Below are positions 2,825 to 63,201 of a stretch of 64,000 nt of DNA, piece after piece. The DNA is from an uncultured Nitrospiraceae bacterium (GTDB lineage Bacteria > Nitrospirota > Thermodesulfovibrionia > Thermodesulfovibrionales > Dissulfurispiraceae): contig CAVPIW010000007.1 in NCBI GenBank assembly GCA_963705105.1, forward strand, positions 256,001 through 320,000. The letters are read 5' to 3'. Both the position numbers and the translations under genes were made by a program. Below the pieces are notes generated by a model, which was given only the letters and a program-made list of their open reading frames with translations, had not been told where the DNA came from and made no database searches. The first letter of the stretch is position 1, and each line of letters opens with the position of its first letter.

Positions 2825-3113
2825 CCTCATCGTTGCAAAAACACTCCCAGGAAAGGCGGGGTGAATGCGCCGAAAACCTTGATGCGGTGACACCTTAACC
2901 TTCACAGAAGATAGCATGCAAGCCGATGGTCGATCACACATACAGTTGAATCCTGCAGGGGCCGTTCCCCGAACGGCCCGACATGAATGCCGCGCCCCAT
3001 ATGGATCATTTCAGGCAAAGGGCTGAACAAAATTAACCCTTTACGGACACTCACACTGACACTGACACTGTTTTTCAGAGTGCTTCGCTCCGCCTTTCAA
3101 TGTAGCTACCGGG
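2825..3113. mobile_element. Modular MITE copy 1 (long end-B ... REP-like insert ... A-short end)
   Basis: CCTCATCGTTGCA...GGAAAGGCGGGG left end, CCGCCTTTC...TACCGGG right end, perfect TTCA duplication at 2821-2824 and 3114-3117. Confidence 0.85.
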
Positions 3114-3128
3114 TTCACACCAAACGGT

Positions 3129-4580
3129 CTATATAACGTAGAGGTCCACGTACTCGTGCACCGGCATGACCTCCAGCCTGCCGCGGTCGAGCGACGCGTC
3201 CAGGATCGCCTGCTGCTGCTTCTGCGGGAAGCGCCGGGCAAGGTTGGTCCGGAACTTTTCCACCAGAACCGGCATGCCTTCCCCGCGGCGGCGGCGGTGG
3301 CCGATGGGGTACTCGACCACGATCTCCGGCAGCGCCGTTCCGTCGTTCAGTTCCACGGTCAGGCCGTTGGCAATGGACCGCTTCTCCGGGTCGTGGTAAT
3401 CCTTCGTGAATTGAGGGTCTTCGAAGCACGTAATCTTGTCGCGCAGCGCATCTATTCGGGGGTCCTCAGCAACGCTGTCCTCGTAATCGGCCGCGGTGAG
3501 TCTGCCGAAGAGGAGGGGCACCGCCACCATATACTGGATGCAGTGGTCGCGGTCCGCCGGGTTGTTGAGCGGCCCCTTCTTGTCGATGATGCGGATCGCC
3601 GCCTCGTGGGTGCGGATACTGATCTTCCTGATGTCCGCCGCGCTGCGGCCCATGCCCTTGAGCTTCTCGTGGAGGCTCATGGCGCATTCCACAGCGGTCT
3701 GGGAGTGAAACTCCGCAGGGAAGGAAATCTTGAAGAGCACATGCTCCATGACGTAGGAGCCGTAGGGACGCTGAAACGCAAAGGACTTCCCCTTGAAGAG
3801 CACGTCGTAGAAGCCCCAGCCTTTGGCGGTGAGGACGCCGGGAATGCCCATCTCCCCCTTCAGCGAGAAGTGCGCGAGCCGGACGGCGCGGCTCGTCGCG
3901 TCACCGGCTGCCCAGGACTTGCGGGAGCCGGTATTCGGCGCATGGCGGTAGGTGCGAAGCGACTGACCGTCGACGAAGGCCTGTGATACGGCGTGTATCA
4001 CCTCGTCACGCGTCCCGCCCATGAGCCAGGCGCAGACAGCGGCAGATGCGACCTTGACGAGCACCACGTGGTCGAGGCCGACGCGGTTGAAGGCGTTCTC
4101 CAGGGCTATGACGCCCTGTATCTCATGGGCCTTGATCATCGCCTCGAGCACGGTCTTCATGATGAGGGGGTCCTTTCCCTGTGCGACGCCGGTACGGGAA
4201 AGCCAGTCCGCCGTGGCAAGGATGCCCCCGAGGTTGTCCGACGGATGGCCCCACTCCGCCGCCAGCCAGGTGTCGTTGAAGTCAAGCCACCGGATCATGG
4301 CGCCGATGTTGAAGGCCGCCTGGACGGGGTCGAGCTGGAACTGCGTGCCAGGTACTTTCGCGCCGTTCGGGACGACGGTGCCCGGCACGACCGGGCCCAG
4401 CAGCTTCGTGCAGGCGGGATAGCCGAGCGCCTCCATGCCGCAGCCGATGGTGTCAATGAGGCAGTAGCGCGCCGTTTCATAGGCCTCGCCGGATGTGATC
4501 GTGTAATCCCTGACATAGTCGGCGATGTCGGCAAGCACTTTGTCGGGTTCGGGTCTGACGTTAGAGATGTATGAACTCAT
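3129..4580 (-). CDS. prpD: 2-methylcitrate dehydratase
   Basis: [45 protein letters not shown]. Confidence 0.97.
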
Positions 4581-4615
4581 TGTTTCTCATCCTTTCAACA
4601 GTCTGGAGCCTGTCA

Positions 4616-5785
4616 TTACCGGTCCTTGATCGGCACATACGACCGGTCGTCGGGGCCGGTGTAGTTGGCTGACGGCCGGATGATCTTGTTGTCCATGCGC
4701 TGTTCGATCGTGTGCGCGCCCCAGCCGGTGGTGCGCGAGATCACAAAGACCGGCGTGAACAGGGGCGTGGGGATGCCGAGCATATGGTAGGCCACGGCAG
4801 AGTACCAGTCGAGGTTCGCGAACATGTTCTTTTCGCGTTTCATGACCATTTCGATCCGGTCTGCGATGTTGTGGAGGTTCACGTTGCCGCCGTCCTCGCA
4901 CAGGCCCCTGGCGATCGCCTTGATGACGGGGTTCCGCGGATCGCTCACAGTGTAGACCGGATGGCCGAAGCCGATGACGATCTCTTTCCGGGCCACGCGC
5001 GCCATGATGTCAGCCTCCGCGTCGTCCGGCGTCCGGTAGCGCCGCTGGATCTCATGGGCCGCCTCATTCGCGCCGCCGTGCTTGGGGCCGCGCAGCGCAC
5101 CGATTGAGCCGGTGACCGCCGAGTAGATGTCCGACAGGGTCCCGGCGATGACACGCGTGGTGAACGTGGATGCCGCGAACTCATGTTCGGCATAGAGGAT
5201 AAGGGACTGGTCCAGCGCCTTCTGATGCAGAGCGGAGGGCTTCCTGCCGTGCATGAGGTGCAGGAAGTGGCCGGCCACGGTCTCGTCGTCCGTTTCAACC
5301 TCAATCCGGCGCCCGTTCTGGGAGAAGTGCCACCAGTAGAGCAGCATGGAACCGAAGGACGCGATCAGGCGGTCAACGATGTCCCGCGCGCTCTGTACGT
5401 TCTGGTCCTCCTTCTCGGGCAGGACCGTGCCGAGGGCGGAGCAGGCCGTGCGCATCACGTCCATGGGATGGGCCGCTGCCGGGATGTGCTCCAGGATGGC
5501 GCGCACATGGGAAGGAATGCCCCGGAGCTGAATCAGCTTCTTTTTATAGTCCTTGAGCTGCGACTCCGTCGGGAGGCCTTCGTGAATGAGGAGATGAGCC
5601 ACCTCCTCGAAGGTCGATTTCTTTGCGAGCTCAACGATGTCAAAACCCCGGTAGTGCAAGTCGTTCCCGGTGCGGCCCACGGTGCAGATCGCCGAATTGC
5701 CCGCAACCACGCCGGAGAGGACGACTGACTTCTTCACTTTTGGGGCAGCGGCGTCCGCTGCCGGTGTGCCTGTGCTGCTGCTCAT
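4616..5785 (-). CDS. prpC: 2-methylcitrate synthase
   Basis: Citrate synthase motifs GPKHGGANE and GFGHPVY; located between prpB and prpD. Confidence 0.93.
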
Positions 5786-6672
5786 GATTTTGCCTCCTTG
5801 GAAAAGATCGCATCGAGTTTTTGTTCATAGGCATGGTAGCCGAGATGATCGTAGAGTTCCTCGCGGGTCTGCATCAGGTCCACAACATTCTTCTGGGAAC
5901 CGTCCTTCCGGATCGCCCCATAAACCGCCAGGGCGGCCTTGCTCATGGCACGGAAGGCGGAGAGGGGGTAGAGGACGAGGCTCACGCCGGCGCCGCGCAG
6001 CTCTTCGACGGTAAAGAGGGACGTTGAGCCGAATTCCGTGATGTTGGCCAGGATAGGAACATTAACGGCCTGCGCGAACTGCCTGTACGTTTCCAAATCC
6101 TTCACCGCCTCAGGAAAGATCATGTCCGCGCCGGCCTCGACGCATGCAGCGGCCCGCGCGACGGCTGCTTCGAGCCCTTCGACGGCAATGGCATCTGTTC
6201 TGGCCATAATGACGAAGCCGGGGTCGGTCCGGGCATCAACGGCTGCCTTGACCCGGTCCACCATCTCCTCCTTCGGCACGATCGCCTTGCCCGGCCGGTG
6301 GCCGCATCGCTTCGCCTGGACCTGGTCCTCCATGTGGACTGCTGCGGCCCCGAACTTGATCATAGATTTGATCGTACGGCCGATATTGAATGCGCCGCCC
6401 CATCCGGTGTCGATGTCCACGAGAACGGGAAGGTCCGTGATGTCGGTGATGCGACGGACATCGGTCAGGACGTCATCCATGGTGCTGATACCCAGATCGG
6501 GGATCCCGAGGGAACTGGCGGCAACGCCGCCTCCCGACACATAGAGCGCCCTGAATCCCGAGTGTTCGGCAAGCCTGGCTGCATAGGCGTTCACGACGCC
6601 GACGACCTGAAGCGGCCGTTCGGCCTTGACGCCGGCGCGGAAGCGGGTGCCCGGTGAATTCTGCTGCGTCAT
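5782..6672 (-). CDS. prpB: Methylisocitrate lyase
   Basis: [25 protein letters not shown]; start MTQQ after GAGGTGAG. Confidence 0.96.
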
Positions 6673-6698
6673 GATACTCACCTCTTTGTCCGGATTAC

Positions 6699-6923
6699 CA
6701 TTAGTGTCCAAAATAACGTGGCACGAGGATAGGACGTGCTTTCTTGGCAAAATAGACATTGTCGTTGCATAGAAAGGCGGGGCGAAGCGCTCTGAAAAAT
6801 AGTGACAGTGACAGTGTGAGTGTCAGCATATTCCCACCTTTCTTATTATGGTACGGTGTCGCCGCATCAAGGTTTTCAGCGCACACACCCCGCCTTTCCA
6901 GAGTCCCTATCGCAACGACAAGA
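6699..6923. mobile_element. Modular MITE copy 2 (A+B, 6757-6923) inserted in an older H-type arm
   Basis: TTGCATAGAAAGGCGGGG...CCCCGCCTTTCC...CGCAACGACAAG; flanks match the H arm seen at about 48150-48220. Confidence 0.8.
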
Positions 6924-7128
6924 TCGTTTCCCTTTGTCACAAATTCTATCATTAACTTGATTCTAGTGCAAATAATCGATCAAAATACCGGCGTTGAGTA
7001 CAAGTGACGGACGGGTCACCTTGTAGATGAAGAGGGAAACATGCATGGCCCGCTTTTCATCCTGAATAATGAACATACTTTACCGGCCGGCGCCGACCGG
7101 CTGGATCACGATTGTAAGGAGTCCTGCC

Positions 7129-7668
7129 ATGGCGAATAAACCAGTGAAGAAGACCGTCGTGACAAAGAAGAAGGAGGTCGTGAAGAAAAGCGAGACGGCT
7201 CCGGCAAGGCGGACTGTGACTGCGAGAGCGGCCGCGCCGAAGAGGGGTGCCGCGGAGTTCAGCGTGAAAACCGGTATGGAGATCACTGCCATGTTCCCGG
7301 ACACCATTGGCCTGACCGCGAAGGTTGCCGAGGCAGTGGCGGCTGAAAATGTGAACATCCTTGCGGCTACGGGATATTCGGCCAGCGGCTTTCGCGAGAA
7401 GGCGACCTTCACGCTTGTCGTGGACGACTATGCCCGGGCCGAGCAGGCCCTGCAGCGCATCGGCGCCAACGAGATCCATCAGTCCACGGTACTGCTCGTG
7501 GAAACGCCGAACCGGGTCGGCGCGCTTGAACGCATCGCAAAGCTCATCGCCGGCGCGGGCATCAATATTTTCTATTTCTACGCCACCACCAGTTCGGGCG
7601 ACACGGCGACCACCGTCATGAAGACGGCAGACGACACGAAGGCGATCAAGGTGCTGAAGAAGGCATAG
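7129..7668 (+). CDS. Tandem ACT-domain protein with Lys-rich N-terminal extension
   Basis: PDTIGLTAKV...NVNILA and PNRVGALERIA...GINI ACT motifs; AAGGAG RBS. Confidence 0.85.
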   Translation: MANKPVKKTVVTKKKEVVKKSETAPARRTVTARAAAPKRGAAEFSVKTGMEITAMFPDTIGLTAKVAEAVAAENVNILAATGYSASGFREKATFTLVVDDYARAEQALQRIGANEIHQSTVLLVETPNRVGALERIAKLIAGAGINIFYFYATTSSGDTATTVMKTADDTKAIKVLKKA

Positions 7669-7672
7669 TGTA

Positions 7673-7884
7673 CCTTCCCGTTGCATGAAAAGGCGGGACA
7701 GAGTGCCTCAAAGCCTTGCTGACAGCGAGCATGATCATCTGAAATTGGACATTGGGGATTCCACCCTTTGTGTCATCAACCGTCATCCTGACATGATCCG
7801 TATGGAAAGGCAGAGGTTTCGCAGCACCAAGGCTTTTCGGCATCTTCGCCCCGCCTTTCCGGAGGCCCTATTGCAACGATAATG
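7673..7884. mobile_element. Modular MITE copy 3 (C+D)
   Basis: CCTTCCCGTTGCATGAAAAGGCGGG...CCCCGCCTTTCCGG...TTGCAACGATAATG; flanks TGTA/TTCA. Confidence 0.85.
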
Positions 7885-8014
7885 TTCAGCGTCCAGTGAC
7901 GTACTCTTGAGGATAATCCAAACAGGGGCCGCTCTCGGAAAAACGGAGGTCGTCCCACGCCGGAGACCTCCGCGTTTCTGAGATCAATCGGAACCTGACA
8001 GCCCTATTGCGGAA

Positions 8015-8413
8015 CTATTTTGCGAGTGCCTTTAACGCCTTGGCATCATCGGCCGTCGACAGGATGGCCGTGCAGGTCTTGCCGGTGAATGCCGTGCCGT
8101 ACGTGTAATTGATGTTGACACCCGCCGCGGCGATCTTCTGCGCGGCCTTCTGCATCTCTCCCGGCTTGTTCGACATCTCGAGGGCGATCACACTCTCTTC
8201 CTTCACGGCGGCGCCCATTTTTGCGATCGCCTTTTTCGCCTTCGCGTTGCCGTCGGTGATGAGCATGAACTCTGCCTTCCCATTCATCGCATAGGCGCAA
8301 CTGGCGACGATGTTCACCTTTGCGGCAGCGATTGCGGCCGCAATGTCGGACAGGAGACCGGGCCTGTCATCCATCACAAACTGGAGCTGTTTTTCCTTCC
8401 GAGCCTTTGCCAT
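8015..8413 (-). CDS. Tandem ACT-domain protein
   Basis: DDRPGLLSDI...VNI and NKPGEM...GVNINYTY; GGAGG RBS. Confidence 0.9.
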   Translation of the reverse strand: MAKARKEKQLQFVMDDRPGLLSDIAAAIAAAKVNIVASCAYAMNGKAEFMLITDGNAKAKKAIAKMGAAVKEESVIALEMSNKPGEMQKAAQKIAAAGVNINYTYGTAFTGKTCTAILSTADDAKALKALAK

Positions 8414-8707
8414 ACACCCACCTCCATCAGATTTTTCTTACATTAATATCAGAAAAGCGAGAGGAATTCAAGAATTATTTTTTCACATTGTGATTCATGC
8501 CCATCATCACATTTCCCCCCTTGTCAACAAATGCTTGGCACTCTTACTTCCCTCACCTGCCGATTCTATTACTTGATTGTTGCCTCAACATGTTGATATG
8601 CCGGTCTTTCTGTTGTCTTTCTGTTTGACATAACCTATCTTTTCCGATAAGATTTAAATGTCATCGATAGCCAATAAATAATGATAGACTGACAAAGACC
8701 CGAGCCT

Positions 8708-8944
8708 ATGTTCAGAAACCCACAGAATGCTTGGCTTCTTCTCGGTGATCAAGCATCGTACTTCACGCCCTCTGAATTACGAAAGGTCAGACGGCAAAAT
8801 GAAAAGGGGCGAATTGAATCGTGGACGTGTTCTCCGCGGGTCGAAGAGGGAGATCTCCTCTTCATCTATTTCACCTCTCCGCGAAGTGCTGTCCATTTCG
8901 TCTCGCGTGCGATATCACGACCGCATGTCGCTACCCACCACTGA
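8708..8944 (+). pseudogene. Truncated EVE/PUA-like N-terminal fragment, probably from a restriction-type protein
   Basis: AWLL...WTCSPRVEEGDLLFIYFTSPRSAV then an abrupt end; lower-GC context. Confidence 0.45.
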
Positions 8945-9096
8945 TGCTCAGAAACCTGACTTATTGAGTTTACTCCCATCGTCCGGTCGCGACTTGCCTT
9001 CAGCTCTCACTTGTGATAGCATCCATTAGAATGAGTGTTCTGCGGACAGCAACTGACATTTGCCAACTGTAGTATGACGATTACGGAGGGTAGTGG

Positions 9097-9781: not shown

Positions 9782-9819
9782 AATGCTCCGTGAAACCACG
9801 TGAACATCTCAGGAGGGCA

Positions 9820-9996: not shown

Positions 9997-10008
9997 GGTC
10001 AGATTTTA

Positions 10009-10070
10009 CCTCATCGTTGCAATACACTTTCAGGAAGGGCGGGGTGTATGCGCCGAAAACCTTGATGCGG
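10009..10070. mobile_element. Solo long end + B arm of the modular MITE
   Basis: TTTA|CCTCATCGTTGCAATACAC...GGCGGGGTGTATGCGCCGAAAACCTTGATGCGG. Confidence 0.75.
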
Positions 10071-10074
10071 ACGC

Positions 10075-10803
10075 TCAGGATGATGCGGGACCGTCGCCCT
10101 CTTCTCCTGTTTCCGGAGGGCCTGACTTTCCGGCGCTTCCTCCCAAAGTCTCTTCAAGCCTGATCGTCCTTTCGATCGCCCCGGAGAGATAGTCCCGGAA
10201 GCGTTCCGGGATGAGCCACTGGATGCCGAGCTTCTCGGCCCAGGCAATCAGTCCCTGGTCGGCGGTGACAAGGACCGCATCGAGCTCCCGGGCGAGGAGG
10301 AGAAGGTCCACATCCTCCCTGCTGTCGATGACTCCCTCCCTGAGGGCTTCCCTGTACTTTTTCCTCAGGTCCTGGATGATCTCGTCGGGCTTCCTCTGCT
10401 CGGCGGACCTGACGGCCTTCTCGGCGATGCGCAGCCCCTTGTTGACCCTGTCGCGCAGGTCCTCGATCAGCTCGTAGAGCACGAACCCGGGGATGGGTAT
10501 TTCATGCCTCCGCGGCGGCCGCTGGTGGAGAATGAGGAGGAGGTCGCCGGGTATGCGGCTCTTGTCGACGAAATTGAGGAGTTCGCTGAAGGTCGAGGGA
10601 GGCATATAAAATTCGAGCACGTGGATCTGCGACGCGAGAAAGAGAAAGGTCTCCAGGGCCTCCGTCGGCGTCGTTCCGAGGCTCATCCTGACGTCGGGAT
10701 TGACGAACAGGCTCGTGTCGAGGACCACCTTCCGGGGAGGAGGAAAGGGGGAATAGGTCCGCCGCGTATCGGGCGAAGTGTCTTCCCCGCCGGCTTCAGG
10801 CAT
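10075..10803 (-). CDS. RNA-free (protein-only) RNase P, HARP / Aq_880-like PIN-domain protein
   Basis: VLDTSLFVNPDVR, FYMPPS, RVNKGLRIAE, YREALREGVIDSREDVDLLLLARELDA.LVTADQG. Confidence 0.9.
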   Translation of the reverse strand: MPEAGGEDTSPDTRRTYSPFPPPRKVVLDTSLFVNPDVRMSLGTTPTEALETFLFLASQIHVLEFYMPPSTFSELLNFVDKSRIPGDLLLILHQRPPRRHEIPIPGFVLYELIEDLRDRVNKGLRIAEKAVRSAEQRKPDEIIQDLRKKYREALREGVIDSREDVDLLLLARELDAVLVTADQGLIAWAEKLGIQWLIPERFRDYLSGAIERTIRLEETLGGSAGKSGPPETGEEGDGPASS

Positions 10804-10827
10804 CGTTCGTTCCCTGCAGGTTCTCCA

Positions 10828-11605: not shown

Positions 11606-11665
11606 GTGCCTGCCTCCTTTCAGAATGATGATTTATTATACCAGACCGTCGCCATCCAAAATAAT

Positions 11666-12087
11666 ATTTGTCGTTGCAATAAAAGGCGGGGCAAAGCGCC
11701 TCAGAGCCTCGCTGATAGCGAGCATGATCGTTTATTATGGTGTATCAGGAATTCACCCTTTGTGACATCGATCATGAGCCTAATGCCTTATCGTTGCAAT
11801 ACACTTCCGGGAAAGGCGGGGCGTATGCGCCGAAAACCTTGCTGCGGCGACACCATAACTCTCACGGAAGACAACCTTTCAAACCAATGGTCGACCACAC
11901 AAAGAGTGGAATCCTGAAAGACAAACCTGACGAGGCTTATCGTCGCCTTCAGCAAGGCTTGAGGCGTTTCGCCACGCCTTTCTATGCAAGGTAATAGTAT
12001 CTTTATGGGAAGGCAAAGGTCTCGCAGCACCGAGGCTTGTCGGCGCCTTCACCCCGCCTTTCCGGAGATCACATTGCATCGATAAGG
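11666..12087. mobile_element. Nested MITEs: outer C+D copy (11666-12087) containing an inner B+C' copy (11786-11991)
   Basis: Outer copy has a perfect TAAT duplication; removing the inner copy restores the C-D architecture of copy 3. Confidence 0.85.
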
Positions 12088-14060: not shown

Positions 14061-14351
14061 CCGTGCAGTTGTTTGAAAAGGCGGGGCGAAACGCCTCAAA
14101 GCCTTGCTGAAGGCGACGATACGCCTCATCAGCTTCGTGTTTCAGGATTCCACTCTTTGTGTCATCGACCATTGGCGTATAGTTCATCTCTCGTTTTGAT
14201 ACAGGTGTCGCCGCAGCAAGGTTTTCGGCGCATACACCCCGCCTTTCCGGAAAGCGTATGCAACGATAAGGTTATTATGTTACGGTGTCGCCGCATCAAG
14301 GTTTTCGGCGCATACGCCCCGCCTTTCCGGAGATCGTATGCGATTATAAAA
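14061..14351. mobile_element. MITE C'+B (14061-14271) followed by a second B arm and long end
   Basis: Two consecutive GGTGTCGCCGC.CAAGGTTTTCGGCGCATAC.CCCCGCCTTTCCGG blocks between dnaK and dnaJ. Confidence 0.85.
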
Positions 14352-18234: not shown

Positions 18235-18655
18235 CTGCGGAACAAGACCACGAACACCCGGACGGAAGGCTGATGTAGTGAAAAGCCTTTCCGCTAAGAT
18301 ACCCTATTCATCACCGGACTACACCTTATCGTTGCAATAGGACATCCGGAAAGGCGGGGCGAAGATGCCTCTAAGCCTTGGTGCTGAGAAACCTATGCCG
18401 TCCCATACGGATTATTTCAAGCGTATGGTTGATCGCATAAAAGATGAGATCCCGAATGTCCCATTTCAAATGATCATGCTCGCTATCAGCAAGGCGTTGA
18501 GGCACTTTGTCCCGACTTTTCATGCAACAGAAAGGTACACTTTGCCGTGTCCATTCATAACAGATGCCCGTCAGGCACCAGGCGCCGAACACCTTGAGAT
18601 GTTTCATCATCGCATTGGAAAGGCTCAGAACCATGTCTGCCTTCCCGGCGACAGC
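18235..18655. mobile_element. Nested MITEs: D+C copy (18324-18535) inserted into an F-E internal module
   Basis: Perfect TACA duplication; the empty site (TCACCAGACCACACTTTGCC) is seen uninterrupted at about 27161-27180. Confidence 0.9.
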
Positions 18656-20709: not shown

Positions 20710-20798
20710 ACGCTGCTCCGTTCAGACCCCTGTTTAGGGGCAAATTGGATAATAAAGGCTTTTCACTCACACTCACACTCACACTGTTTGAGGTTTAA

Positions 20799-20967
20799 CC
20801 CTGTAGTTGTATAAAAAGGCGGGGCGAAGCGCTCTGAAAAATAGTGACAGTGACAGTGTGAGTGTCAGCATATGCCCACCTTAATCTTATTATGTTACGG
20901 TGTCGCCGCATCAAGGTTTTCGGCGCATACGCCCCGCCTTTCCCGGAAGTGTATTGCAACGACAAGG
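20799..20967. mobile_element. Modular MITE (A+B)
   Basis: Perfect TTAA duplication at 20795-20798 and 20968-20971. Confidence 0.9.
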
Positions 20968-26982: not shown

Positions 26983-27368
26983 CCTTTCGTTGCAATACAC
27001 TCCCGGGAAAGGCGGGGCTGGGGTGAATGCGCCGAAAACGAGCGACGCCGTGACAGTCATTAAGTCATTAGCCGGCAGTCAAGCGTCGGAACAAGGCCAC
27101 AAGCATTGGGACGGGGAGGCTGATGTGGTGAAAAGCCTTTCCTCTAAGATACCTTATTCATCACCAGACCACACTTTGCCGTGTCCATTGATACGAAAAG
27201 CCCGTCAGGCAACAGGCGCTGAACACCTTGAAATGTCTCATCATCGCATTGGAAAGGCTTTGAACCATATCTGCCTCCCCGGCGAAACAGCATTTAGAAT
27301 GAAATGATCATCGTCGCCTTCAGCAAGGCTTTGAGGCGCTTTGCCCCCCTTTTCATACAGCTCAAAGG
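26983..27368. mobile_element. Long modular MITE (long end-G-F-E-C'-short end)
   Basis: Both terminal repeats present; flanks TTAA/TTAC. Confidence 0.85.
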
Positions 27369-27442
27369 TTACCTCTGCACGACGGTCGAGAAATCGAAAG
27401 AGGTGTACCTTTCACTGACACTCACACTGATACTGGGGTATA

Positions 27443-29006: not shown

Positions 29007-29390
29007 CCTTAACGTTGCAATGGGACCTCCGGAAAGGCGGAGCGTATGCGCCGACAAGCCTCGGTGCTGCGAAACCTTTGCCTTCCCATACAGATCATGT
29101 CAGACAGATGGTGGATGACACGAACGATGAATTCCCGATACACCAATAATAAACGATCATTCTCGCTATCAGCGAGGCATTGAGGCGCGTCGTCCCGCCT
29201 TTTCATTGCAACTGGAAGGTTTACCTTATCGTTGCAACACACTCCCAGGAAAGGCGGGGTGTATGCGCCGAAAACCTTGATGCGGCGACACCGTAGCATA
29301 ATAAGAAAGGTGGGCATATGCTGACACTCACACTGTCACTGTCACTATTTTTCAGAGCGCTTCGCCCCGCCTTTCCAACCAGCCGAAAGG
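29007..29390. mobile_element. Tandem MITEs D+C (29007-29219) and B+A (29224-29390) sharing a TTTA target
   Basis: TTTA|element|TTTA|element|TCTA. Confidence 0.9.
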
Positions 29391-34865: not shown

Positions 34866-35065
34866 TCTCTCAGTCCTATGAGAAGGCGGGACAAAGTGCT
34901 CTGAAAAAAACAGTGTCAGTGTCAGTGTGAGTGTCAGCAGAAGGTTCACCTTTTTTTCAACCGTGAGCCTGACATGATCCTTATGGGAAGGCAAAGGTTT
35001 CGCAGCACCAAGACTTTTCGGCAGCTTCGGCCCGCCTTTCCGGAGTTCCCATTGCGGCAATCAGG
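34866..35065. mobile_element. Modular MITE (A+D) between kinase and response regulator
   Basis: Perfect TTAA duplication at 34862-34865 and 35066-35069. Confidence 0.85.
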
Positions 35066-35491: not shown

Positions 35492-35772
35492 TAATGGGGA
35501 CAGCGCCCTATTTATCTTGATCTGCAATGCACGTGATTGTTCATCAGGCAATAGGCCCAGATGCCCAGAGAATATTTCCGGCTGTATAGCGTCAGCCAAT
35601 CCAGATACCGGAGGAAATCGTCATCACTGTCAAAGACCCTCTGGCGGTAGTTGTCCCGCTGCGCGATGTGATGAGGATATCCGACTGCAACCGCTCTTGC
35701 TATTCTCGTTATGGTTCAATGCTATGGCACCACACCCCGTTTGTCAATAAATGGGCGCTGTCCCTATTTATC
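35492..35772 (-). mobile_element. Internally deleted (mini) derivative of the RAYT element
   Basis: Both end motifs of 36455-37200 present; the last few RAYT codons are fused directly to the 5' third. Confidence 0.85.
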
Positions 35773-36475: not shown

Positions 36476-37141
36476 TTATCTTGATCTGCGCGGTCTGCCT
36501 CGCGGCAAGGCAGTCAACACCCGGCCGAGCACCTGCTCCATTTTCCTTTCAAACGCCTCATCCCCACAGGGACGACCTGTCCGTGTACACTGCCGTATCT
36601 CGTCAACTAATTCAGGTTCCTCCGTCTCCCTCAAGTATCCCGACCAATCTTTGATCCTCCCGACAAGATAGCAGTCATCAGAAAGCACAGGGTCAGCATG
36701 TCCCTTCACATGCGCCCCCGCGCTCGACCAGCGGTATTGATCCGCTTTTAAGACGATCCCGGCTTTCACCGGATTATTCTCCACATATCGCACAGCCGCA
36801 TAGAGATGCCGTTCATCCAGAACGCACGAGTAAAACCGCCCCTGCCAGAGATGTCCCCTTTGATCTTGCTTCGTGTTGATGTGCTGCGAATATCTCATAT
36901 GAAGTGTGTTGAAGGTCTTTGCCAGGGCATCATCTTCATGAGGGACGGCAATGAAGTGCACATGATTGTTCATCAGGCAATAGGCCCAGATGCTCAGAGA
37001 ATATTTCCGGCTGTATAGCGTCAGCCAATCCAGATACCGGAGGAAATCGTCATCACTGTCAAAGACCCTCTGGCGGTAGTTGCCCCGCTGCGTGATGTGG
37101 TGAGGATATCCGACTGCAACCGCTCTTGCTATTCTCGGCAT
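36476..37141 (-). CDS. REP-associated tyrosine transposase (RAYT, HUH Y1)
   Basis: HHITQRGN.RQ, AYCLMNNHVH, HLWQGRF, YVENNP, WSS; flanked by inverted GGGACAGCGCCC.ATTTAT repeats (36457-36479, 37177-37198). Confidence 0.93.
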   Translation of the reverse strand: MPRIARAVAVGYPHHITQRGNYRQRVFDSDDDFLRYLDWLTLYSRKYSLSIWAYCLMNNHVHFIAVPHEDDALAKTFNTLHMRYSQHINTKQDQRGHLWQGRFYSCVLDERHLYAAVRYVENNPVKAGIVLKADQYRWSSAGAHVKGHADPVLSDDCYLVGRIKDWSGYLRETEEPELVDEIRQCTRTGRPCGDEAFERKMEQVLGRVLTALPRGRPRRSR

Positions 37142-37206
37142 GGTTCAATGCTATGGCACCACACCCCGTTATGTCAATAAATGGGCGCTGTCCCTCTTTA
37201 TTCCCC

Positions 37207-37372
37207 GATACCGGAGGAAATCGTCATCACTGTCAAAGACCCTCTGGCGGTAGTTGCCCCGCTGCGTGATGTGGTGAGGATATCCGACTGCAACCGCTCT
37301 TGCTATTCTCGGCATAGTTCAATGCTATGGCACCACACCCCGTTATGTCAATAAATGGGCGCTGTCCCTAAT
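37207..37372 (-). mobile_element. Tandem partial duplication of the RAYT 5' end and end motif
   Basis: Near-identical to about 37033-37198. Confidence 0.85.
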
Positions 37373-48117: not shown

Positions 48118-48465
48118 CGATGCAGTCGCATGAAAAGGCGGGGCTGAACTTCATTGGTGTCCAAGGTAACGTAACACGAGGACAGGGCATGCTTTCTTCG
48201 CAAAATAAACTCCCTTTCCTCATGAGCATGTCTTTGTTTTGAAAACATGTGTCTTCACAGGTACACCTTTCTGTTGCATGGAAAGGCGCGGCGAAGCACC
48301 TCAAAGCCTTGCTGAAGGCGACGATGAGCCTCGTCAGCTTCGTGTTTCAGGATTCCACTCTTTGTGTCATCGACCATTGGCGTATAGTTCATGATACAGG
48401 TGTCGCCGCAGCAAGGTTTTCGGCGCATACACCCCGCCTTCCAGAAAGCGTATGCAACCATAAGG
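48118..48465. mobile_element. H-arm MITE unit (about 48118-48261) followed by a C'+B MITE (48266-48465)
   Basis: Second unit has a perfect TACA duplication (48262-48265, 48466-48469). Confidence 0.88.
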
Positions 48466-49912: not shown

Positions 49913-50107
49913 CTTTATCGGTGCAACACACTCCCGCGAAAGGCGGGGCGTATGCGCAGAAAACCTTGCTGCGGCGACACCGTAACTCTCACAGAAGACG
50001 ACCTTTCAAGCAAATGGCCGAAAAGTGAGCCTTTTTACTGACACTGACACTCACACTGACACTGTTTTTCAGAGCGCTTCGCCCCGCCTTTCCATGCAAC
50101 TGAAAGG
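49913..50107. mobile_element. Modular MITE (B+A)
   Basis: Perfect TTTA duplication at 49909-49912 and 50108-50111. Confidence 0.88.
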
Positions 50108-51017: not shown

Positions 51018-51176
51018 CCCCAAAACAAAGTGTCAGTGTGAGTGTGAGTGCCAGTGAAAGGAGACGTCATAAATAATTATCCCAAAAAAAAGTGTCAGTG
51101 TGAGTGTGAGTGCCAGTGAAAGGAGACGTCATAAATAATTATCCCCAAAAAAAAGTGTCAGTGACAGTGTGAGTGA
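51018..51176. repeat. Tandem repeat with 62-63 bp period (about 2.4 copies) containing the GTGTCA/GTGTGA hexamer satellite
   Basis: GTGTCAGTG blocks start at 51030, 51092 and 51155. Confidence 0.9.
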
Positions 51177-51177
51177 A

Positions 51178-51361
51178 CCTTAACGTTGCAATGGGACCTC
51201 CGGAAAGGCGGGGCGTATGCGCCACCCAATAAATTATTGAGTCATTGAGTCATTGAGTAATTGAGTAATTAAGTCATTGACGGCAGTCAACAGGCGCTGA
51301 ACACCTGGAGAAGTCTCATCATCGCATTGGAAAGGCTTTGAACCATATCTGCCTTCCCGGG
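51178..51361. mobile_element. Partial MITE (long end-G satellite-E)
   Basis: TGAA|CCTTAACGTTGCAATGGGACCTCCGGAAAGGCGGGG, (ATTGAGTC)n, E module. Confidence 0.8.
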
Positions 51362-51406
51362 GCAGAGCCGCTGCCGGCGATGGCATCCAGGAGCCTCGCC
51401 CCGCTT

Positions 51407-53199: not shown

Positions 53200-53200
53200 G

Positions 53201-54341: not shown

Positions 54342-54380
54342 GTTTCAGCATATCACAGGGACGGCGCCGTTTCAAATCAT

Positions 54381-57300
54381 TCATCCCTTTCCCCATCCGC
54401 CGCCGCCGGGTGTTTCGATCACGACGGCATCACCGGCCTCCAGCTCCAGTGTCACCCTGTGGGGCAGCCCGACGATGCGTCCGTCGGCCCTCCTGAGCAG
54501 GTTCATCCCCCTTGCTCCCGGCTGCCCTCCTTCAAGTCCGTACGGCTCAGTCCGTCTCCGCTCCGAAATGATCACCACCCTGGCGGGCTTGAGAAAAGCG
54601 ATCTCCCTCGCCAGGCCGTCACCGCCCGGAAAGAGTCCTCTCCCCCCGGACCCCCGTCGCAGCATGAACCTCTTCAGGAGCACGCCGGGATGGCGGTATT
54701 CAAGGATCTCCGGGTCCGTCATCCGGGTGTTCGTCATGTGCACCTGCACGCCCGATGCGCCGGCGCACCCCTCAGTAGCACCCGATCCCCCTGCAATCGT
54801 CTCATAGTAAGGGGTGTCCCCTTCGACCTGGAAGAGCAGGTTGTTCATGGTGCCCTGCGATGCGGCGGCGAGGCCGAGGGCACCGAGGAGGACATCGACG
54901 ATGCGCTGCGACGTCTCCACATTGCCCGTCGAAACGGGCGCGGGGAAACGCGGATTCAGGATGGTGCCTTCCGGGGCGATGATTCTGACAGGTCTCAGGC
55001 AGCCGCTGTTTAGGGGGATGTCCGTGCCGGCGATCGTCCTGAGCACATAGAGGACCGCCGAGCGGGTAACGGGAAGAGGCGCGTTCAGGCTGTCGGCGTC
55101 ATGCTGCGGCCCCGTGCCCGAAAAATCGATTGTCGCCTGAACGGTCCCCGGAGGGTCTGATCCTCCTGAAATAACGATCCTTACCATGATGGGGCTGCCG
55201 TCGTCGAGACGATCCCCGAAGGTCCCCTCGAAAATATTGCCCGGTCCGAGAAAGCGTGCAAGCCCCTGCCGGACCATCATGGCCCCGTTGTCCTGGATAT
55301 GTTTCATGTAGTGCGTCACCGTTTCAGTGCCGTATTTCGCGATCGCCCCGGCCAGGTCCCTCGCCCCTTTCAGGCACGCCGCCATCTGGGCCTGCACGTC
55401 GAGGAGCCGCTCGGAAATGTTCCTCGCCGGATAGGGGCTGTCCGTGAGGAGACGCGCGAGTCGCTCCGCGAAGAACGTGCCGCCGCGGGCGACGCGCATC
55501 GGGTCGATGAGAACGCCCTCTTCGTCGATATGACGGGCTTCCGGGAGGAGAGACCCCGGCACGATGCCCCCTATGTCGGCATGATGGCCCCGCGCGGCGG
55601 TGAAGGCCAGCGGTCCCTCGCCATCCAGGAAAAAGGGGCAGACCACCGTCATGTCCGGGAGGTGCGAGCCTCCGCGATAGGGGTTATTCGTGAGAAAGAG
55701 GTCGCCCGGCTGCATGTCGCTGCCGTATCGGGCCAGCACCGCCTTGACCGTATCGGCCATGGAGCCCAGGTGGACGGGGATATGGGGTGCATTGGCGACG
55801 AGGTCTCCCCGCCCGTCAAAGAGGGCGCAGGAGAAGTCGAGCCGCTCCTTGATGTTGACGGAGCAGGACGTGTTCCTCAGGACGTGTCCCATTTCCGAGG
55901 CGATGTTCATGTAGAGGTTGTTGAATACCTCCAGGAGGACCGGGTCAGGGGCCGCATGTTCCCGCAACGCCGTCACCGTGCCCTGTGCAACCATATCGAT
56001 CGTTATCATGGCTGATTCGTCGATCACGGCCGTGAAACCCGGATCGACGACAACGGTCGTATGCGCGTCGACGATGAGCGCCGGACCATTGATCGTCTCG
56101 CCGGCCGGCGCCGTTTCTCTGAGAAACACCGGGGCAAGGACCTCTCCTTCCGGGACGGCGACAGTCTGCCAGGTGACGGGACCCGCTCCTTCCCCTCCGT
56201 GCAGCCTGTCGTGGCGGTATGGCGGGAAGAACTCCTCCTCCGCCTCCAGCTCCACCCTGATATTCTCGACCTCGATCACACCGTCTCCGGGAGAAAAACC
56301 GAAGGTGCGGCGATACCGTTGCCTGAATGATTCAGCGGTCTGATCGTAGTCGCGGCATTCCACAGACAGGGACATGTCCGTCCCGAGAGGCCGGAGGTCA
56401 AGCATGCGCTTCCGGAGGAGTCTCCTTGCCGAAAGCCCGTGATCATTGACCATCGTCTCCTCAAGGGCCAGAAAAGACCGCGCAAGGTCGCCGTGACTCT
56501 GCGGCGTGTAGGGCCTGAGGACCGACAGGGAGGACGTCCAGGCCTGCTTTGCCAGGCCCATGCCGTAGGCGGACAACAGGCTTCCCAGGGGGTGGATCAA
56601 GATCCTCCTGATGCCCAGCGATGATGCGATGCCGCAGGCGTGCTGGCCTCCCGCCCCTCCGAAGCAGACGAGGACGTGCTTCGTCACGTCGTAGCCCTTC
56701 GAAACGGAAACCTCCCTGATCGCCATCGCCATCTTTTCATCGGCGATCTGCAGGAAGCCGAGGGCCGTCCCGACAGGGGTGTCAGACCTTCCCAGGTCCG
56801 TGTTGATACGGTCCGTCAGCTTTTGAAAGCCCTGACGGACGGCGGCGATATCGACAGGCGACTTCCTGTCTCTTCCGAAGGTCTTCGGAAAGAATTCCCC
56901 GGCGACCCTGCCGGTCATCACGTTCGCGTCGGTTATTGTGAGGGGGCCGCCGAAGCCGTAACAGGCGGGCCCGGGATCGGCGCCGGCCGATTCGGGACCG
57001 ACGCGCATCTTCTGTCCGTCGAACCAGAGGATCGATCCTCCACCTGATGCGACGGTATTGATGCCGAGCATCTCCGTCCGGAATTCCAAGCCTCCCAACA
57101 CCTGATCCGGGCGCAGCAGAAACTCGCCGTCGAAGCGTGACACGTCCGTCGATGTGCCTCCCATATCGAAGCCGATCGCCTCGCCGATGCCCCTCCGGCC
57201 GGCAATGCCCGCCACGGCAACGACTCCTCCCGCAGGCCCGGACAGGAGAGCCGCCTTGCCCCGGAAACGTCCCGCCCCGGTGAGCCTGCCGGAACTCTCC

Positions 57301-58004
57301 ATGAACTCGATCCTGATATTCCCCGTGCAGCGTTGGATGGATTCGGTGTAGAGGGCGATGGGCACGCTCAGATAGGCATCGATGACGGTGCTCTGTCCCC
57401 TCGTCACGATCTTGATGAGGCTCAGCGTCCGGTGGGAGAGAAAAACGGGGTTGAATCCACGCGCTTCCAGGAGCCTGCCGCAGAGGATTTCGTGGACGGG
57501 GTTCTTCCATGCGTGCATCGACACGACGGCAACGGCATCGATGTCCATCGTCCCGAGGCGGTCGATGTGGGTGATGATATTCTTTTCGTCAAGGGGCGTC
57601 ACGACGTCACCCTTGCCGTTGATCCGCTCATCCATCTCGAAGACGGCGGCATAGAGAGGCTCCGGCTTTCTGATGCAGAGACTGAACAGGTCCGGCCTCG
57701 TCTGATACCCGATATCGAGGATGTCCCCCAGTCCGGCGGTGATGAACAGGGCGACCCTGCTCCCCTTTCTTTCAAGGAAGGCGTTGGTGGCGACGGTCGT
57801 GCCGAACCTGATGGCTTCGATTTTGTCCTCCGGCAGCGGCTCGCCGGGGCTGGTGCCGAGGATGCGCCGGATGCCCTCTATGGAGGGGTCGCCGTACTCG
57901 GGGGATCGGGAGAGGAGCTTGAGGGTGTGATAGGAGCCGTCAGGATCGACGCCGATGATGTCCGTGAAGGTGCCGCCCTGGTCGACGGCGAATTTCCATT
58001 TCAT
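54381..58004 (-). CDS. Fused hydantoinase A/B 5-oxoprolinase
   Basis: DQGGTFTD, DMGGTSTD, GPESAGADPGPACY, HIPVHLGSM, TPGGGGWG. Confidence 0.95.
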   Translation of the reverse strand: MKWKFAVDQGGTFTDIIGVDPDGSYHTLKLLSRSPEYGDPSIEGIRRILGTSPGEPLPEDKIEAIRFGTTVATNAFLERKGSRVALFITAGLGDILDIGYQTRPDLFSLCIRKPEPLYAAVFEMDERINGKGDVVTPLDEKNIITHIDRLGTMDIDAVAVVSMHAWKNPVHEILCGRLLEARGFNPVFLSHRTLSLIKIVTRGQSTVIDAYLSVPIALYTESIQRCTGNIRIEFMESSGRLTGAGRFRGKAALLSGPAGGVVAVAGIAGRRGIGEAIGFDMGGTSTDVSRFDGEFLLRPDQVLGGLEFRTEMLGINTVASGGGSILWFDGQKMRVGPESAGADPGPACYGFGGPLTITDANVMTGRVAGEFFPKTFGRDRKSPVDIAAVRQGFQKLTDRINTDLGRSDTPVGTALGFLQIADEKMAMAIREVSVSKGYDVTKHVLVCFGGAGGQHACGIASSLGIRRILIHPLGSLLSAYGMGLAKQAWTSSLSVLRPYTPQSHGDLARSFLALEETMVNDHGLSARRLLRKRMLDLRPLGTDMSLSVECRDYDQTAESFRQRYRRTFGFSPGDGVIEVENIRVELEAEEEFFPPYRHDRLHGGEGAGPVTWQTVAVPEGEVLAPVFLRETAPAGETINGPALIVDAHTTVVVDPGFTAVIDESAMITIDMVAQGTVTALREHAAPDPVLLEVFNNLYMNIASEMGHVLRNTSCSVNIKERLDFSCALFDGRGDLVANAPHIPVHLGSMADTVKAVLARYGSDMQPGDLFLTNNPYRGGSHLPDMTVVCPFFLDGEGPLAFTAARGHHADIGGIVPGSLLPEARHIDEEGVLIDPMRVARGGTFFAERLARLLTDSPYPARNISERLLDVQAQMAACLKGARDLAGAIAKYGTETVTHYMKHIQDNGAMMVRQGLARFLGPGNIFEGTFGDRLDDGSPIMVRIVISGGSDPPGTVQATIDFSGTGPQHDADSLNAPLPVTRSAVLYVLRTIAGTDIPLNSGCLRPVRIIAPEGTILNPRFPAPVSTGNVETSQRIVDVLLGALGLAAASQGTMNNLLFQVEGDTPYYETIAGGSGATEGCAGASGVQVHMTNTRMTDPEILEYRHPGVLLKRFMLRRGSGGRGLFPGGDGLAREIAFLKPARVVIISERRRTEPYGLEGGQPGARGMNLLRRADGRIVGLPHRVTLELEAGDAVVIETPGGGGWGKG

Positions 58005-58020
58005 GGCATGAAACGGGAGG

Positions 58021-58914
58021 CTACACGAGTCTGCGGCTGATGAGGGGCTCGAGCGTAGCTATGATCTTTCCCTTGTTGAAAATGGACACCCTTCCGGTGC
58101 TCTCGGAAACGACGATTGCGACGGCGTCGGTGATCCGCGAAATGCCCGCGGCAGAACGATGGCGCGCGCCGAGTCCCCTCAGGCTTTTCGAAATATGTCC
58201 GGACACGTCGAGGTGACGCCCTGCCGCCTCGACAACGCCGTCATCGGATATGACGACAGCACCGTCGAGCTTGGAGAGCTCCTTGATGCTCTCGACGACC
58301 TCGGGCCGTGTGATCATGCGCTCGTCCCGGTCGTACCCTTTGAAGGGATTGAAGACGGTCTGATGAGACGATCTCATGACGTTTTCCGTATCGCCGATGA
58401 CGAAGGCGGTGCCGAGAGGCTTGCCTTCCCGACCCAGAGCCCCGATGTCGAGGGCGATGTCGACGACGGCCATGATCGTGTGAAAGGCCCTGTTTTCCAT
58501 GAGAGGCTGGACCTCGAAAGGAAACTCTTCGCTCCAGGAGTGGGCGAGGTCATGGATGGTGATGGTGTCGAGATGACATCTGCCGTACGGGCCAAGGACG
58601 CAGACGACCTTGCTGTCGGGCCTGATGATGCCGTGGAGAACGCCGTTCATAAATGCGTACTTGATCCGGGAAAACCTGCTCTGGTTCCCGGACCAGCTCT
58701 TCAGGACCGTGGCGCATTCCGGAATGGCTTCATTGCCTGTCAGGGTCAGATAGGTGGGGATGACGATGACGATGAGATCTTTTTCGATGATGCCGCACTT
58801 TATGAACCACCTGCATTCCGACGGGGTGCTCGTGAAAAGGAAGACCCTTTCGCACCCTGTCTTTTTCGCCAGGTCAAGAGCGCTCTCGATGATGAAAAGA
58901 CGCTGATCCTTCAT
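58021..58914 (-). CDS. Diadenylate cyclase, DacZ-like architecture
   Basis: REGKPLG, DGA and RHR motifs, VSES; soluble N-terminal domain. Confidence 0.88.
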
Positions 58915-59040
58915 GGTTTCTATGATACCACAGCACAGGACGGAATCCGCACTTTCCGCTCACTGACACTGACACTCACACTGTCACTGAATGCAGACTT
59001 GCGTGATGCCCCTGTCTTGAATTACATTTATAAAATAATT

Positions 59041-61734
<2,694 letters not shown>

Positions 61735-61739
61735 GAAAT

Positions 61740-62120
61740 CATCGTGGTTGCATGAAAAGGCGGGGCGAAGCATTCTGAAAACAGTGTGAGTGTGAGTGTC
61801 ACTGCCGCTGCCGACGGGAAGGCAGATATGATTCAAAGCCTTTCCAATGCGATGATGAGGCATCTCAAGGTGTTCGGTGCCTGTTGCCTGACGGACGTTT
61901 GTTTTCAATCGACACGGCAAAGGGTGGTCTGGGGATACAAGAGGGTATCTTAGCGGACAGGCTTTTCATCACATCAGCCTTCCCGTCGTGACGTACGTGG
62001 TTTTGTTCCCATTGTCGACTGTCGTTCAATGACTTAGTGACTTAATGACTCAATGACTTAATGACTTTTCTAGGTGGTCTTCACCCCGCCTTTCCGGAGG
62101 TCCTGTCGCACCGGTTAAGG
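61740..62120. mobile_element. Long modular MITE (short end-A-E-F-G-long end)
   Basis: Inverted relative to 26983-27368 but carries arm A instead of C'. Confidence 0.85.
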
Positions 62121-62220
62121 ATACTGAAAGACGGGGATTATTTTAAGAACCGATGATAAGCTATAATGAATGTCAGGCATTGTTGCCCCTGGCAAGAAGA
62201 ATATCCGATCGGAGGAAGGA

Positions 62221-62892
62221 ATGAAGGGAAAGACCATTTTGATTACCGGCGCCAGTTCCGGCATCGGCAGGGCGAGCGCACTCCGCTTCGCTTCGGAACG
62301 CGCGAACCTGATTCTCACCTATAAGAAAAAGAAGGTCGAAGGCGAGGACACGGAGCGGCGCTGCAGGGAGGCCGGTTCCTCGGAGACCCTCCTGCTGAAG
62401 ATGGATGCGCTGAAAGATGCGGACATCGCAGCGGCCGTTGAGGCGGTGAAGAAATCCTTCGGTACCGTCGACATTCTGATCAATAACGCCGGCACCAATA
62501 TCCTGAAGACCTTCAGTGAAATCACGGGAAACGACATTGAACTCCAGCTTCGCACGAACCTTGAAGGGCTGATCAAAATCACTCATGCCTTTCTCCCCAT
62601 CGTCAGAGAGGGGATCATAAATATCGGGAGTTTTCTCGGCAAGAATCCCTCCGAGGATTTTGCGGTCTACTGCGCGTCGAAATACGGTGTTCGCGGTTTC
62701 ACCCAGGCCCTTGCGCTGGAGTATCCCAAGCTGAAGATCTGCTGCTTCAACCCGGACATGACGGCGACGCCGCTGACGGGTTACCAGGGAAGATCGCCCG
62801 AGAAGGTGGCGGACCTCCTGTACCGGACCGCAGCAGGAGAAATAGCCTGTGCTGACGGCGGAGACGTCGACGTCTGGGTTTTGGATAAATAG
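62221..62892 (+). CDS. Short-chain dehydrogenase/reductase
   Basis: TGASSGIG, NNAG, YCASK. Confidence 0.93.
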   Translation: MKGKTILITGASSGIGRASALRFASERANLILTYKKKKVEGEDTERRCREAGSSETLLLKMDALKDADIAAAVEAVKKSFGTVDILINNAGTNILKTFSEITGNDIELQLRTNLEGLIKITHAFLPIVREGIINIGSFLGKNPSEDFAVYCASKYGVRGFTQALALEYPKLKICCFNPDMTATPLTGYQGRSPEKVADLLYRTAAGEIACADGGDVDVWVLDK

Positions 62893-62926
62893 GGTGCTGT
62901 TTATACACTCACAGAGTTGAAGTGTA

Positions 62927-63201
62927 CCTTTCTGTTGCATGAAAAGGCTGGGCGAAGCGCTCTGAAAAACAGTGTCAGTGACAGTGTGAGTGTCAGCAAA
63001 AGTTCACATTTTTTCAGCCGGCGGCCTGAAATAGCTTCATCGATGTCGGGCGTTCGGGGAACGGCCCCTACACTATTTCATCCTTATGTGTCATCGACCA
63101 TTGGCGTATAGTTCATCTCTCGCTTTGATACAGGTGTCGCCGCATCAAGGTTTTCGGCGCATTCACCCAGCCTTTCCCGCAAGTGCATTGCAACGATGAG
63201 G
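62927..63201. mobile_element. Modular MITE (A ... REP-like insert ... B)
   Basis: Both ends intact, flanks TGTA/TCTA; shares its internal module with copy 1. Confidence 0.88.

Follow-up and report, generated by a model that had tools for sequence, protein, structure and literature searches.

An abundant orphan MITE family in a Nitrospiraceae genome and its likely mobilisation by one IS1380 clade

A 64,000-nt stretch of DNA from an uncultured Nitrospiraceae bacterium (hereafter the window) carries the same short repeat in gap after gap, which raises the question of what these repeats are and which enzyme could have spread them. A first-pass annotation of the sequence had read them as a heavily amplified, non-autonomous MITE family with CC...GG ends. 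Here, we argue that the copies are very probably type II MITEs inserted at AT-rich TNNA sites with a 4-bp target duplication, likely moved in trans by one clade of IS1380 elements.

Copies in the window

All 16 loci named in the first-pass annotation are present, and we count 16 paired units and four solo ends (10009, 14351, 48118 and 51178):

2825..3113, minus strand: paired unit, long end left and short end right, 289 bp, TTCA duplicated; interior with a REP-like palindrome and a hexamer tandem repeat
6757..6923, plus strand: paired unit, tandem-repeat subtype, 167 bp, without duplication (TAGA/TCGT)
7673..7884, plus strand: paired unit, subfamily B, 212 bp, flanks TGTA/TTCA
10009..10070, minus strand: solo long (right-type) end, truncated, inner boundary approximate
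11666..12087, plus strand: outer unit, subfamily B, host of the nested unit, 422 bp, TAAT duplicated
11785..11991, minus strand: nested unit, subfamily A, short end shortened, 207 bp, TAAT duplicated
14061..14271, plus strand: paired unit, subfamily A, 211 bp, flanks GTCA/TTAT
14272..14351, plus strand: extra partial long end in tandem, solo
18324..18535, minus strand: paired unit, subfamily B, 212 bp, TACA duplicated, 99.1% identity to a copy on contig C12
20799..20967, plus strand: paired unit, tandem-repeat subtype, 169 bp, TTAA duplicated
26983..27368, minus strand: long mosaic unit with an older cassette within, 386 bp, TTAA/TTAC
29007..29219, minus strand: paired unit, subfamily B, 213 bp, TTTA duplicated, 99.5% identity to a copy on C12
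29224..29390, minus strand: paired unit, 167 bp, TTTA/TCTA, directly after the duplication of unit 29007..29219
34866..35065, plus strand: degenerate paired unit, 200 bp, TTAA duplicated
48118..48150, plus strand: degenerate solo short end, absent from the earlier list, inner boundary approximate
48266..48465, plus strand: paired unit, subfamily A, 200 bp, TACA duplicated
49913..50107, minus strand: paired unit, 195 bp, TTTA duplicated
51178..51365, minus strand: solo long end, then an octamer tandem repeat and part of an older cassette, inner boundary approximate
61740..62119, plus strand: long mosaic unit with degenerate ends, 380 bp, AAAT/GATA
62927..63201, plus strand: paired unit with a tandem repeat and a REP-like palindrome, 275 bp, TGTA/TCTA

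The unit interiors follow no single sequence; subfamilies and nested cassettes are combined in them as a patchwork. The eight perfect 4-bp duplications reported earlier were read correctly (TTCA at 2825; TAAT at 11666; TACA at 18324 and 48266; TTAA at 20799 and 34866; TTTA at 29007 and 49913), and the nested unit adds a ninth; flanks nearly match at 26983, 29224 and 62927. The footprint, previously put at 4.4 kb, comes to ~4.7 kb with fragments and nested repeats included. The repeats had also been said to occupy most intergenic gaps, which holds for window gaps of at least 180 bp (15 of 21) but neither for all window gaps (15 of 52) nor genome-wide, where 578 of 1423 long gaps (~40%) contain a MITE. 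That they never lie in a CDS is nearly true: against gene positions from a crude gene caller, 6 of the 1058 ends in the genome fall inside genes, versus 754 for random positions.

Sharp ends, 4-bp duplications and single-copy empty sites across the genome

The host assembly (G000) contains 536 short and 522 long ends, with none in reversed sequence at stricter cut-offs; strict end motifs find 346 short and 380 long ends, versus 0 in locally shuffled sequence. A motif-free inverted-repeat finder regained the same ends at 25 of 40 loci (counted by eye). The 1058 ends are dispersed and mostly intergenic, and the units have a modal length of 211–213 bp, a 13-bp terminal inverted repeat, an inner repeat of ~45 bp and no transposase gene, all as in type II MITEs. 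This corresponds to ~530 ends per type (~125 per Mb) or 356 short–long pairs (84 per Mb), and repeat plus cargo make up 2–4% of the genome. The earlier guess of hundreds of non-autonomous copies is thus supported (~500 copies of ~200 bp). Among 71 non-modal lengths, a helical-phase rule for unit length found no support.

Perfect 4-bp duplications flank 148 of the 356 pairs, compared with a permutation mean of 16 and a maximum of 27 in 2000 permutations, so that the flanking matches first seen in the window exceed chance genome-wide. Other lengths are rarer (2 bp, 24 pairs; 3 bp, 10; 5 bp, 6; 6 bp, 0). The duplicated target is TNNA, most often TTAA (23 of 120), TTTA (22) or TAAA (14). A reading as a 2-bp duplication with terminal A/T is contradicted: among cases with matching central bases and a flank other than T..A, both copies are alike in 19 of 42 and 19 of 43, and empty sites are consistent with a single 4-mer.

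These empty sites are of two kinds, and both retain the single 4-mer copy predicted for them. At 21 of the 148 duplicated junctions, the flanks match elsewhere without a gap and with one 4-mer copy kept, whereas two copies fit in 3 cases and none in 1. In the window, unit 18324..18535 sits within an older terminus-less cassette that has 77 empty paralogues, and unit 48266..48465 lies in another repeat that has 20 with one copy. A first placement of run contigs was swamped by repeats and gave no clear orthologous empty site; contigs of runs X1 and X5 skip the nested unit 11785..11991, with four letters fitting either side. One X5 contig, with a 30-letter short side and from a strain ~94% alike, gives an orthologous empty site at G000:C6:338596, where TACA stands once. 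The copy present at this position in the host is identical over 212 bp to one at C12:280739, and since the flanks of the two are unrelated, this indicates recent movement. Furthermore, four runs from four studies have contigs that stop at identical element borders. As a side observation, four RNA runs contained 5–9% of the words.

One IS1380 clade as the likely mobiliser

CC...GG ends and 4–5 bp duplications are traits of the IS1380 family, and the first-pass annotation had named this family on these grounds. The guess holds for one clade in particular, which agrees with the MITE in ends, polarity, TNNA target and co-occurrence. In a quick tree, this clade (SH-aLRT 100; 9 of 46 rows) combines CC-N5-GTTGCA ends with the same target. 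Its members are ~1.5–1.7 kb long with a single transposase ORF (PF13701/NF033539), and 3 of 3 clade proteins exceed the NCBIfam IS1380 cut-off (NF033539). The MITE end matrices score -0.9 to -28 against seven other IS1380 end types, except one weak +2.6. Polarity is preserved at both ends: the left-end matrix is the better fit for 402 of 457 short ends and the right-end matrix for 445 of 462 long ends, as scored at positions other than those that found the ends, and flank profiles agree. One genome (G227) carries a clade IS together with a collinear 208-bp MITE that has a 16-bp identical end and a duplicated TTTA, and mini-elements of 36 and 60 bp with clade ends and perfect duplications occur in L335 and L333.

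The likeness is confined to the termini. Shared MITE–IS sequence stops at 13–16 bp, with nothing beyond ~23 positions, as in type II MITEs; most IS ends have an ATAAA run after GTTGC, which is absent from the host's ends, and the inner GGCRGGGC motif, strongly kept in the host, occurs at 0 of 134 autonomous-type ends. Perfect 4-bp duplications flank 12 of 56 metagenome IS copies, a low rate that likely reflects chimeric flanks, and most IS copies in the well-assembled genomes G245 and G476 have them.

The transposase had been placed outside the window, which is supported; it is missing from the whole assembly (99% complete, 19 contigs), where PF13701 and tblastn searches found none and the clade profile gave nothing below E 13. 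Searches of five other MITE-bearing genomes (fragmented MAGs, some of which may be one genome twice) gave no clade transposase either. In the host, 22 candidate transposase ORFs flanked by matching ends included no cognate IS, and two of them are one IS1634 inside a MITE. The host's PF01609 loci and its multi-copy IS families were rejected for their different ends, and the IS1380 of genome G004 for belonging to a different clade. The MITE sequence has no match in plasmids or IMG/VR, the latter of which holds one clade transposase. The clade shares only ~22–26% identity with other IS1380 groups and with the ISEcp1/ISSsu5 types found on plasmids, and none of the 120 closest proteins listed has an ISfinder-style name.

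Taken from ends, polarity, target and co-occurrence, this clade is the likely mobiliser. Its transposase would recognise the outer 13–15 bp of the MITE, bind and pair a short (left-type) and a long (right-type) end, and integrate the unit with a 4-bp stagger. The source of the enzyme might be an IS that has since disappeared, a stretch missing from the assembly, or a transient plasmid or phage. Genes would be purged of insertions, so that copies accumulate in gaps and inside other repeats. Nesting, deletion and inter-copy recombination may generate the mosaic interiors.

Other genera of the order (likely Thermodesulfovibrionales) also carry homologous MITEs of ~210 bp, whose inner inverted repeat covaries, is offset by ~10 bp at one end and has no counterpart in the IS. 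This repeat is passed on within the MITE lineage, and movement probably does not depend on it.

A true MITE could instead be moved today by an enzyme of the host (IS1634, IS1182, IS4, IS256, IS3, IS481, ISL3 or an unrecognised protein that binds the inner repeat), its IS1380-like ends being a relic or convergent. Recent identical copies in an assembly without the clade transposase fit this, as does an inner motif kept in the host and missing from IS ends. We consider it improbable, because the multi-copy IS and ten inspected DDE_Tnp_1 loci carry other termini, the IS1634 inspected has a 5-bp duplication, the inner repeat changes in sequence between families, and the youngest copies retain both 4-bp TNNA duplications and the correct left/right polarity. 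Selection for structured RNA or single-strand hairpins, with ERIC- or REPIN-like roles in mRNA stability or termination and mobility secondary, seems less probable still. The long stem (z -3.86 for 14061-14271) would suit it, and so would the length of 208–216 bp that holds across genera while centres diverge, the 49 of 371 units that adjoin a stop codon, and the 13 of 28 pairs that change on both sides among 13 copies chosen by hand from six genomes or records; the rows of this last test are related, however, and its structure derives from the same alignment. Units are oriented without bias relative to neighbouring genes (109 vs 123), Rfam gives 0 matches in the window at the gathering score, the two strands fold to about the same extent, A-C mismatches and G-U pairs have similar frequencies, as for a DNA inverted repeat, and a copy is absent in the related strain. 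Arms of inverted repeats can, moreover, homogenise by template switching. To chance repeats or an assembly artefact we give next to no credence, given the zero or near-zero controls, the shared contig borders and the homologues in other genomes.

Relation to known elements and significance

With Correia/CREE, ERIC and QMITE, the family shares the traits given for type II MITEs in the available part of a review (PMC10969869): it is short, non-coding, intergenic, multi-copy and stem-loop-forming, duplicates its target, resembles an IS only in its terminal repeats, shows a gradient of size and sequence, and is a landing pad for other elements. It differs from them in sequence, 4-bp TNNA duplication, asymmetric ends, 10-bp-offset inner repeat and IS1380 link, and 'IS1380' and 'TTAA' do not occur in that review (PMC10969869). 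With the IS1380 elements IS1247, ISPme1 and ISEcp1 it has CC...GG ends, short inverted repeats and 4–5 bp duplications in common (IS1247: 1672 bp, IR 16/13, DR 5 in the available text of PMC3281130), but it lacks a transposase, and neither it nor the host assembly provides an autonomous member. Nor is there an excess of gene-capturing composites (14 of 267 vs 9.5), unlike the ISPme1/ISEcp1 TMos as covered in the accessible portion of PMC9330008.

The earlier remark that TTAA targets recall piggyBac stands in part. PiggyBac and its MITEs likewise have CC(C/T)T-like, asymmetric ends and TTAA as the commonest target, and IS1380 is the outgroup in piggyBac trees (PMC10813416, part of the text). 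The family's TNNA target makes it piggyBac-like without TTAA specificity: the near-exclusive TTAA use of piggyBac is not found, and the enzyme would be a bacterial IS1380. REP/REPIN elements, mobilised by RAYT, have GTAG-palindrome ends and no 4-bp DDE-type duplication; here, ends are CC-N5-GTTGCA with such a duplication, and GTAG palindromes appear only as cargo or hosts. A MITE census gives a top bacterial load of 468 per genome and 123 per Mb in its available text (PMC11602168), the same order as here; as counting methods differ, we place the load near the top of the range and claim no record. 'Nitrospir' and 'IS1380' are absent from the census main text, and its supplement may list the family unnamed (PMC11602168).

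We describe a new type II MITE family, and an IS1380-linked MITE appears to be without precedent in the literature searched. A far-reaching picture, which we offer as speculation and think unlikely to hold in full, is that an unnamed, widespread, TTAA-leaning and piggyBac-like IS1380 clade, for which 16-bp ends suffice, feeds an ancient order-wide MITE lineage. Selection would maintain its fixed ~212-bp length and covarying inner hairpin for a separate function, in synapsis geometry or as RNA, and the lineage would still be jumping wherever a host can borrow the enzyme from passing mobile elements.

The family is an orphan, very abundant bacterial MITE tied to a specific transposase clade, and this tie makes mobilisation directly testable. 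IS1380 chemistry is, to our knowledge, poorly known; a TTAA-leaning clade, natural mini-elements of 36–60 bp and hundreds of mapped insertions together form a data set on end and target needs. At 2–4% of the genome, cargo included, and with a copy in ~40% of long gaps, the repeats can reshape promoters and mRNA ends and offer a landing pad.

A dense MITE family in the window and genome

The motifs and loci described by the first-pass annotation are present in the window, where a position-matrix scan resolves 15 paired units and four solo ends; beyond these 15, one further paired unit at 34866-35065 is degenerate. The eight perfect 4-bp duplications listed in that annotation were all recovered, and nine window units have one in total. 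MITEs were also said to occupy most intergenic gaps, which holds in the window for gaps of at least 180 bp (15/21), not for all gaps (15/52), and fails genome-wide, with MITEs in 578 of 1423 long gaps; all gap and gene figures, in the window and genome-wide, rest on a crude gene caller.

Hundreds of copies had been thought possible, and the whole assembly (4.23 Mb, 19 contigs) contains them. Strict motifs detect 346 short (left-type) and 380 long (right-type) ends, with none in shuffled sequence, while a matrix scan detects 536 and 522, its reversed-sequence control giving 1 match at the loosest cut-off and 0 at stricter ones. Inward-facing ends form 371 pairs, 356 of them made up of a short end and a long end. 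Paired units make up 2.0% of the genome, or 4.1% including fragments and nested repeats. Called genes contain 6 of the 1058 ends, versus 754 for random positions, and no orientation bias toward flanking genes was found in the assembly (109 versus 123). A published MITE census (PMC11602168) gives bacterial maxima of 468 copies in one genome and 123 per Mb; this load, counted by a different method, is near the top of that range.

Both ends consist of a 13-bp terminus (CC-N5-GTTGCA) followed by an inner inverted repeat of ~45 bp, which begins at offset 19 in short ends and at 28-29 in long ones. The commonest forms are two subfamilies of 211-213 bp (113 and 39 copies); no helical phasing was found among non-modal unit lengths. 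Other units contain tandem repeats of hexamers or octamers, or else a GTAG palindrome, or a ~170-bp cassette, which is bounded solely by inner-type repeats, lacks transposon termini and is akin to the body of a family in a related genome (G004). Genome-wide, the cassette has 43 matches inside paired units and 95 outside, and hexamer repeats (AGTGTC/AGTGTG) have 148 and 276, with octamer and heptamer repeats distributed likewise. The REP-like GTAG palindrome is matched 73 times; another palindromic repeat, in which MITEs are often inserted, is matched 91 times.

Repeats and other features in the window
About 18270-18650, 27120-27285 and 61810-61985: ~170-bp cassette
20760-20790, 27410-27435, 51020-51170 and 58955-58990: tandem repeats
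About 2955-2985 and 63050-63075: GTAG palindrome
35523-35741 and 36952-37344: 219-nt direct repeat, three copies, unrelated to the MITE, in a 3.4-kb stretch without called genes (crude gene caller)
10075-10803 (minus strand): ORF matching PRK04358/TIGR03875, which we take to be a family of RNA-free RNase P (HARP)

Evidence of transposition

Genome-wide, a perfect flanking 4-mer accompanies 148 of the 356 short-long pairs, well above chance (permutation mean 16, maximum 27). Insertions target TNNA (n=120: TTAA 23, TTTA 22, TAAA 14). Vacant paralogous sites hold a single 4-mer: junctions with one copy match gap-free for 21 of the 148 units (596 matches), versus 3 units with two copies and 1 with none. 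Duplications are kept in 46/57 young copies (nearest-neighbour identity at least 96%) and 17/93 old ones (below 85%). The copy at C6:338596, which separates two genes in an ABC-transporter operon, has an identical 212-bp counterpart at C12:280739, and the flanks of the two are unrelated. At the C6 site, one contig from public run X5 crosses an orthologous empty site with a single TACA, its short side being just 30 letters, and an X3 contig is compatible with an empty site, not decisive. Contigs from four runs in four studies diverge from the reference at identical element borders.

This pattern is a transposon footprint. The repeat is a genuine, new family of type II MITEs that is very abundant, has moved recently and is ordinary in kind. 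No account of it, or of an IS1380-linked MITE, was found in the literature covered; ISfinder, most subscription papers and the census supplement lie beyond that scope and may hold them. Elsewhere (C10:240792-243138), an IS1634 copy sits within a MITE unit that retains its TTAT flanks.

An IS1380 clade as candidate partner

The transposase had been placed outside the window, and the IS1380 profile PF13701 indeed has no match in the whole assembly, whose remaining IS elements have ends unlike those of the MITE. Across the order, 111/317 genomes carry PF13701. A quick tree of 46 transposase rows (rows <330 aa excluded) contains a clade of 9 (SH-aLRT 100) with ends CC-N5-GTTGCA; all three clade proteins that were checked score above the NCBIfam cut-off for IS1380. 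One viral locus, together with the best 80 among 430 metagenome relatives, supplied 71 left ends, which give CCNNNYAGTTGCATAAA, and 70 right ends, which give CCYNAWCGTTGCATAAA. Because these ends had been located with a MITE-derived motif, a motif-free inverted-repeat check was made, and its top pair is identical to the motif-found ends in 25/40 loci.

The IS1380 affinity suggested earlier gains from this end match and its polarity: scored on positions 3-8 alone, 402/457 short ends favour the left matrix and 445/462 long ends the right. Forty short ends are identical to a clade left 13-mer and none to a right one, and the flank profiles agree. In one genome (G227) a clade IS occurs alongside a MITE of 208 bp that is collinear with this family, and IS and MITE have a 16-bp end in common; in another (G054) a clade IS occurs alongside a different MITE, of 192 bp, with clade-type ends. 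Against the partnership, profile search and tblastn recovered no clade transposase in the assembly, nor was one found in five other MITE-bearing genome entries; the inner motif GGCRGGGC occurs in 0/134 autonomous-type IS ends, and perfect duplications surround just 12/56 metagenome IS copies. Judged from sequence, this clade is a well-supported candidate partner. Its DDE enzyme would very probably recognise the outer MITE ends in trans and integrate the element with a 4-bp stagger at TNNA.

Three mini-elements, L335 (G227:C30; 36 bp), L333 (60 bp) and L334 (58 bp; both in G196), contain little beyond two clade ends. Perfect TTAA and TTCA duplications flank L335 and L333, respectively, which suggests that the MITE interior is dispensable. 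The predicted stem (z -3.86) may have a putative effect on transcripts.

Relatives across the order

G004 holds a homologous, older family of at least 40 copies, and homologues also occur in G177, G254, G124 and G227, as well as in three records, two of them titled Thermodesulfovibrionales and the third Chloroflexota. The order is probably Thermodesulfovibrionales (Nitrospirota): G113, which belongs to it, has a transposase that carries a Nitrospiraceae label. Exact terminal patterns number 121 in G141, 77 in G124, 75 in our assembly and 54 in G115 (controls 0-3). G141, G124, G115, G059, G196, G228, G222 and G254 each have dozens of ends that are exactly of the clade type (examples were looked at only from G124, G196 and G254), which points to several further bursts of MITEs within the order. 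An other-clade IS1380 lies within an element whose ends are clade-type and which is flanked by TTAA on either side (L146, G104:C55), and the related MITEs in the Thermodesulfovibrionales records have short hairpins inserted in them, as well as nested palindromes that are long and perfect (L128, L108, L102).

The aligned families are all collinear (208-222 bp), and their inner repeat covaries on both arms at 13/28 pairs, in 13 hand-picked, related rows with the structure taken from the same alignment. The left-type terminus lies at the short-spacer end in our assembly and G004, and the arrangement is reversed in G124, G227 and the Thermodesulfovibrionales records. The family is of moderate interest, for its partner assignment and an architecture conserved order-wide.
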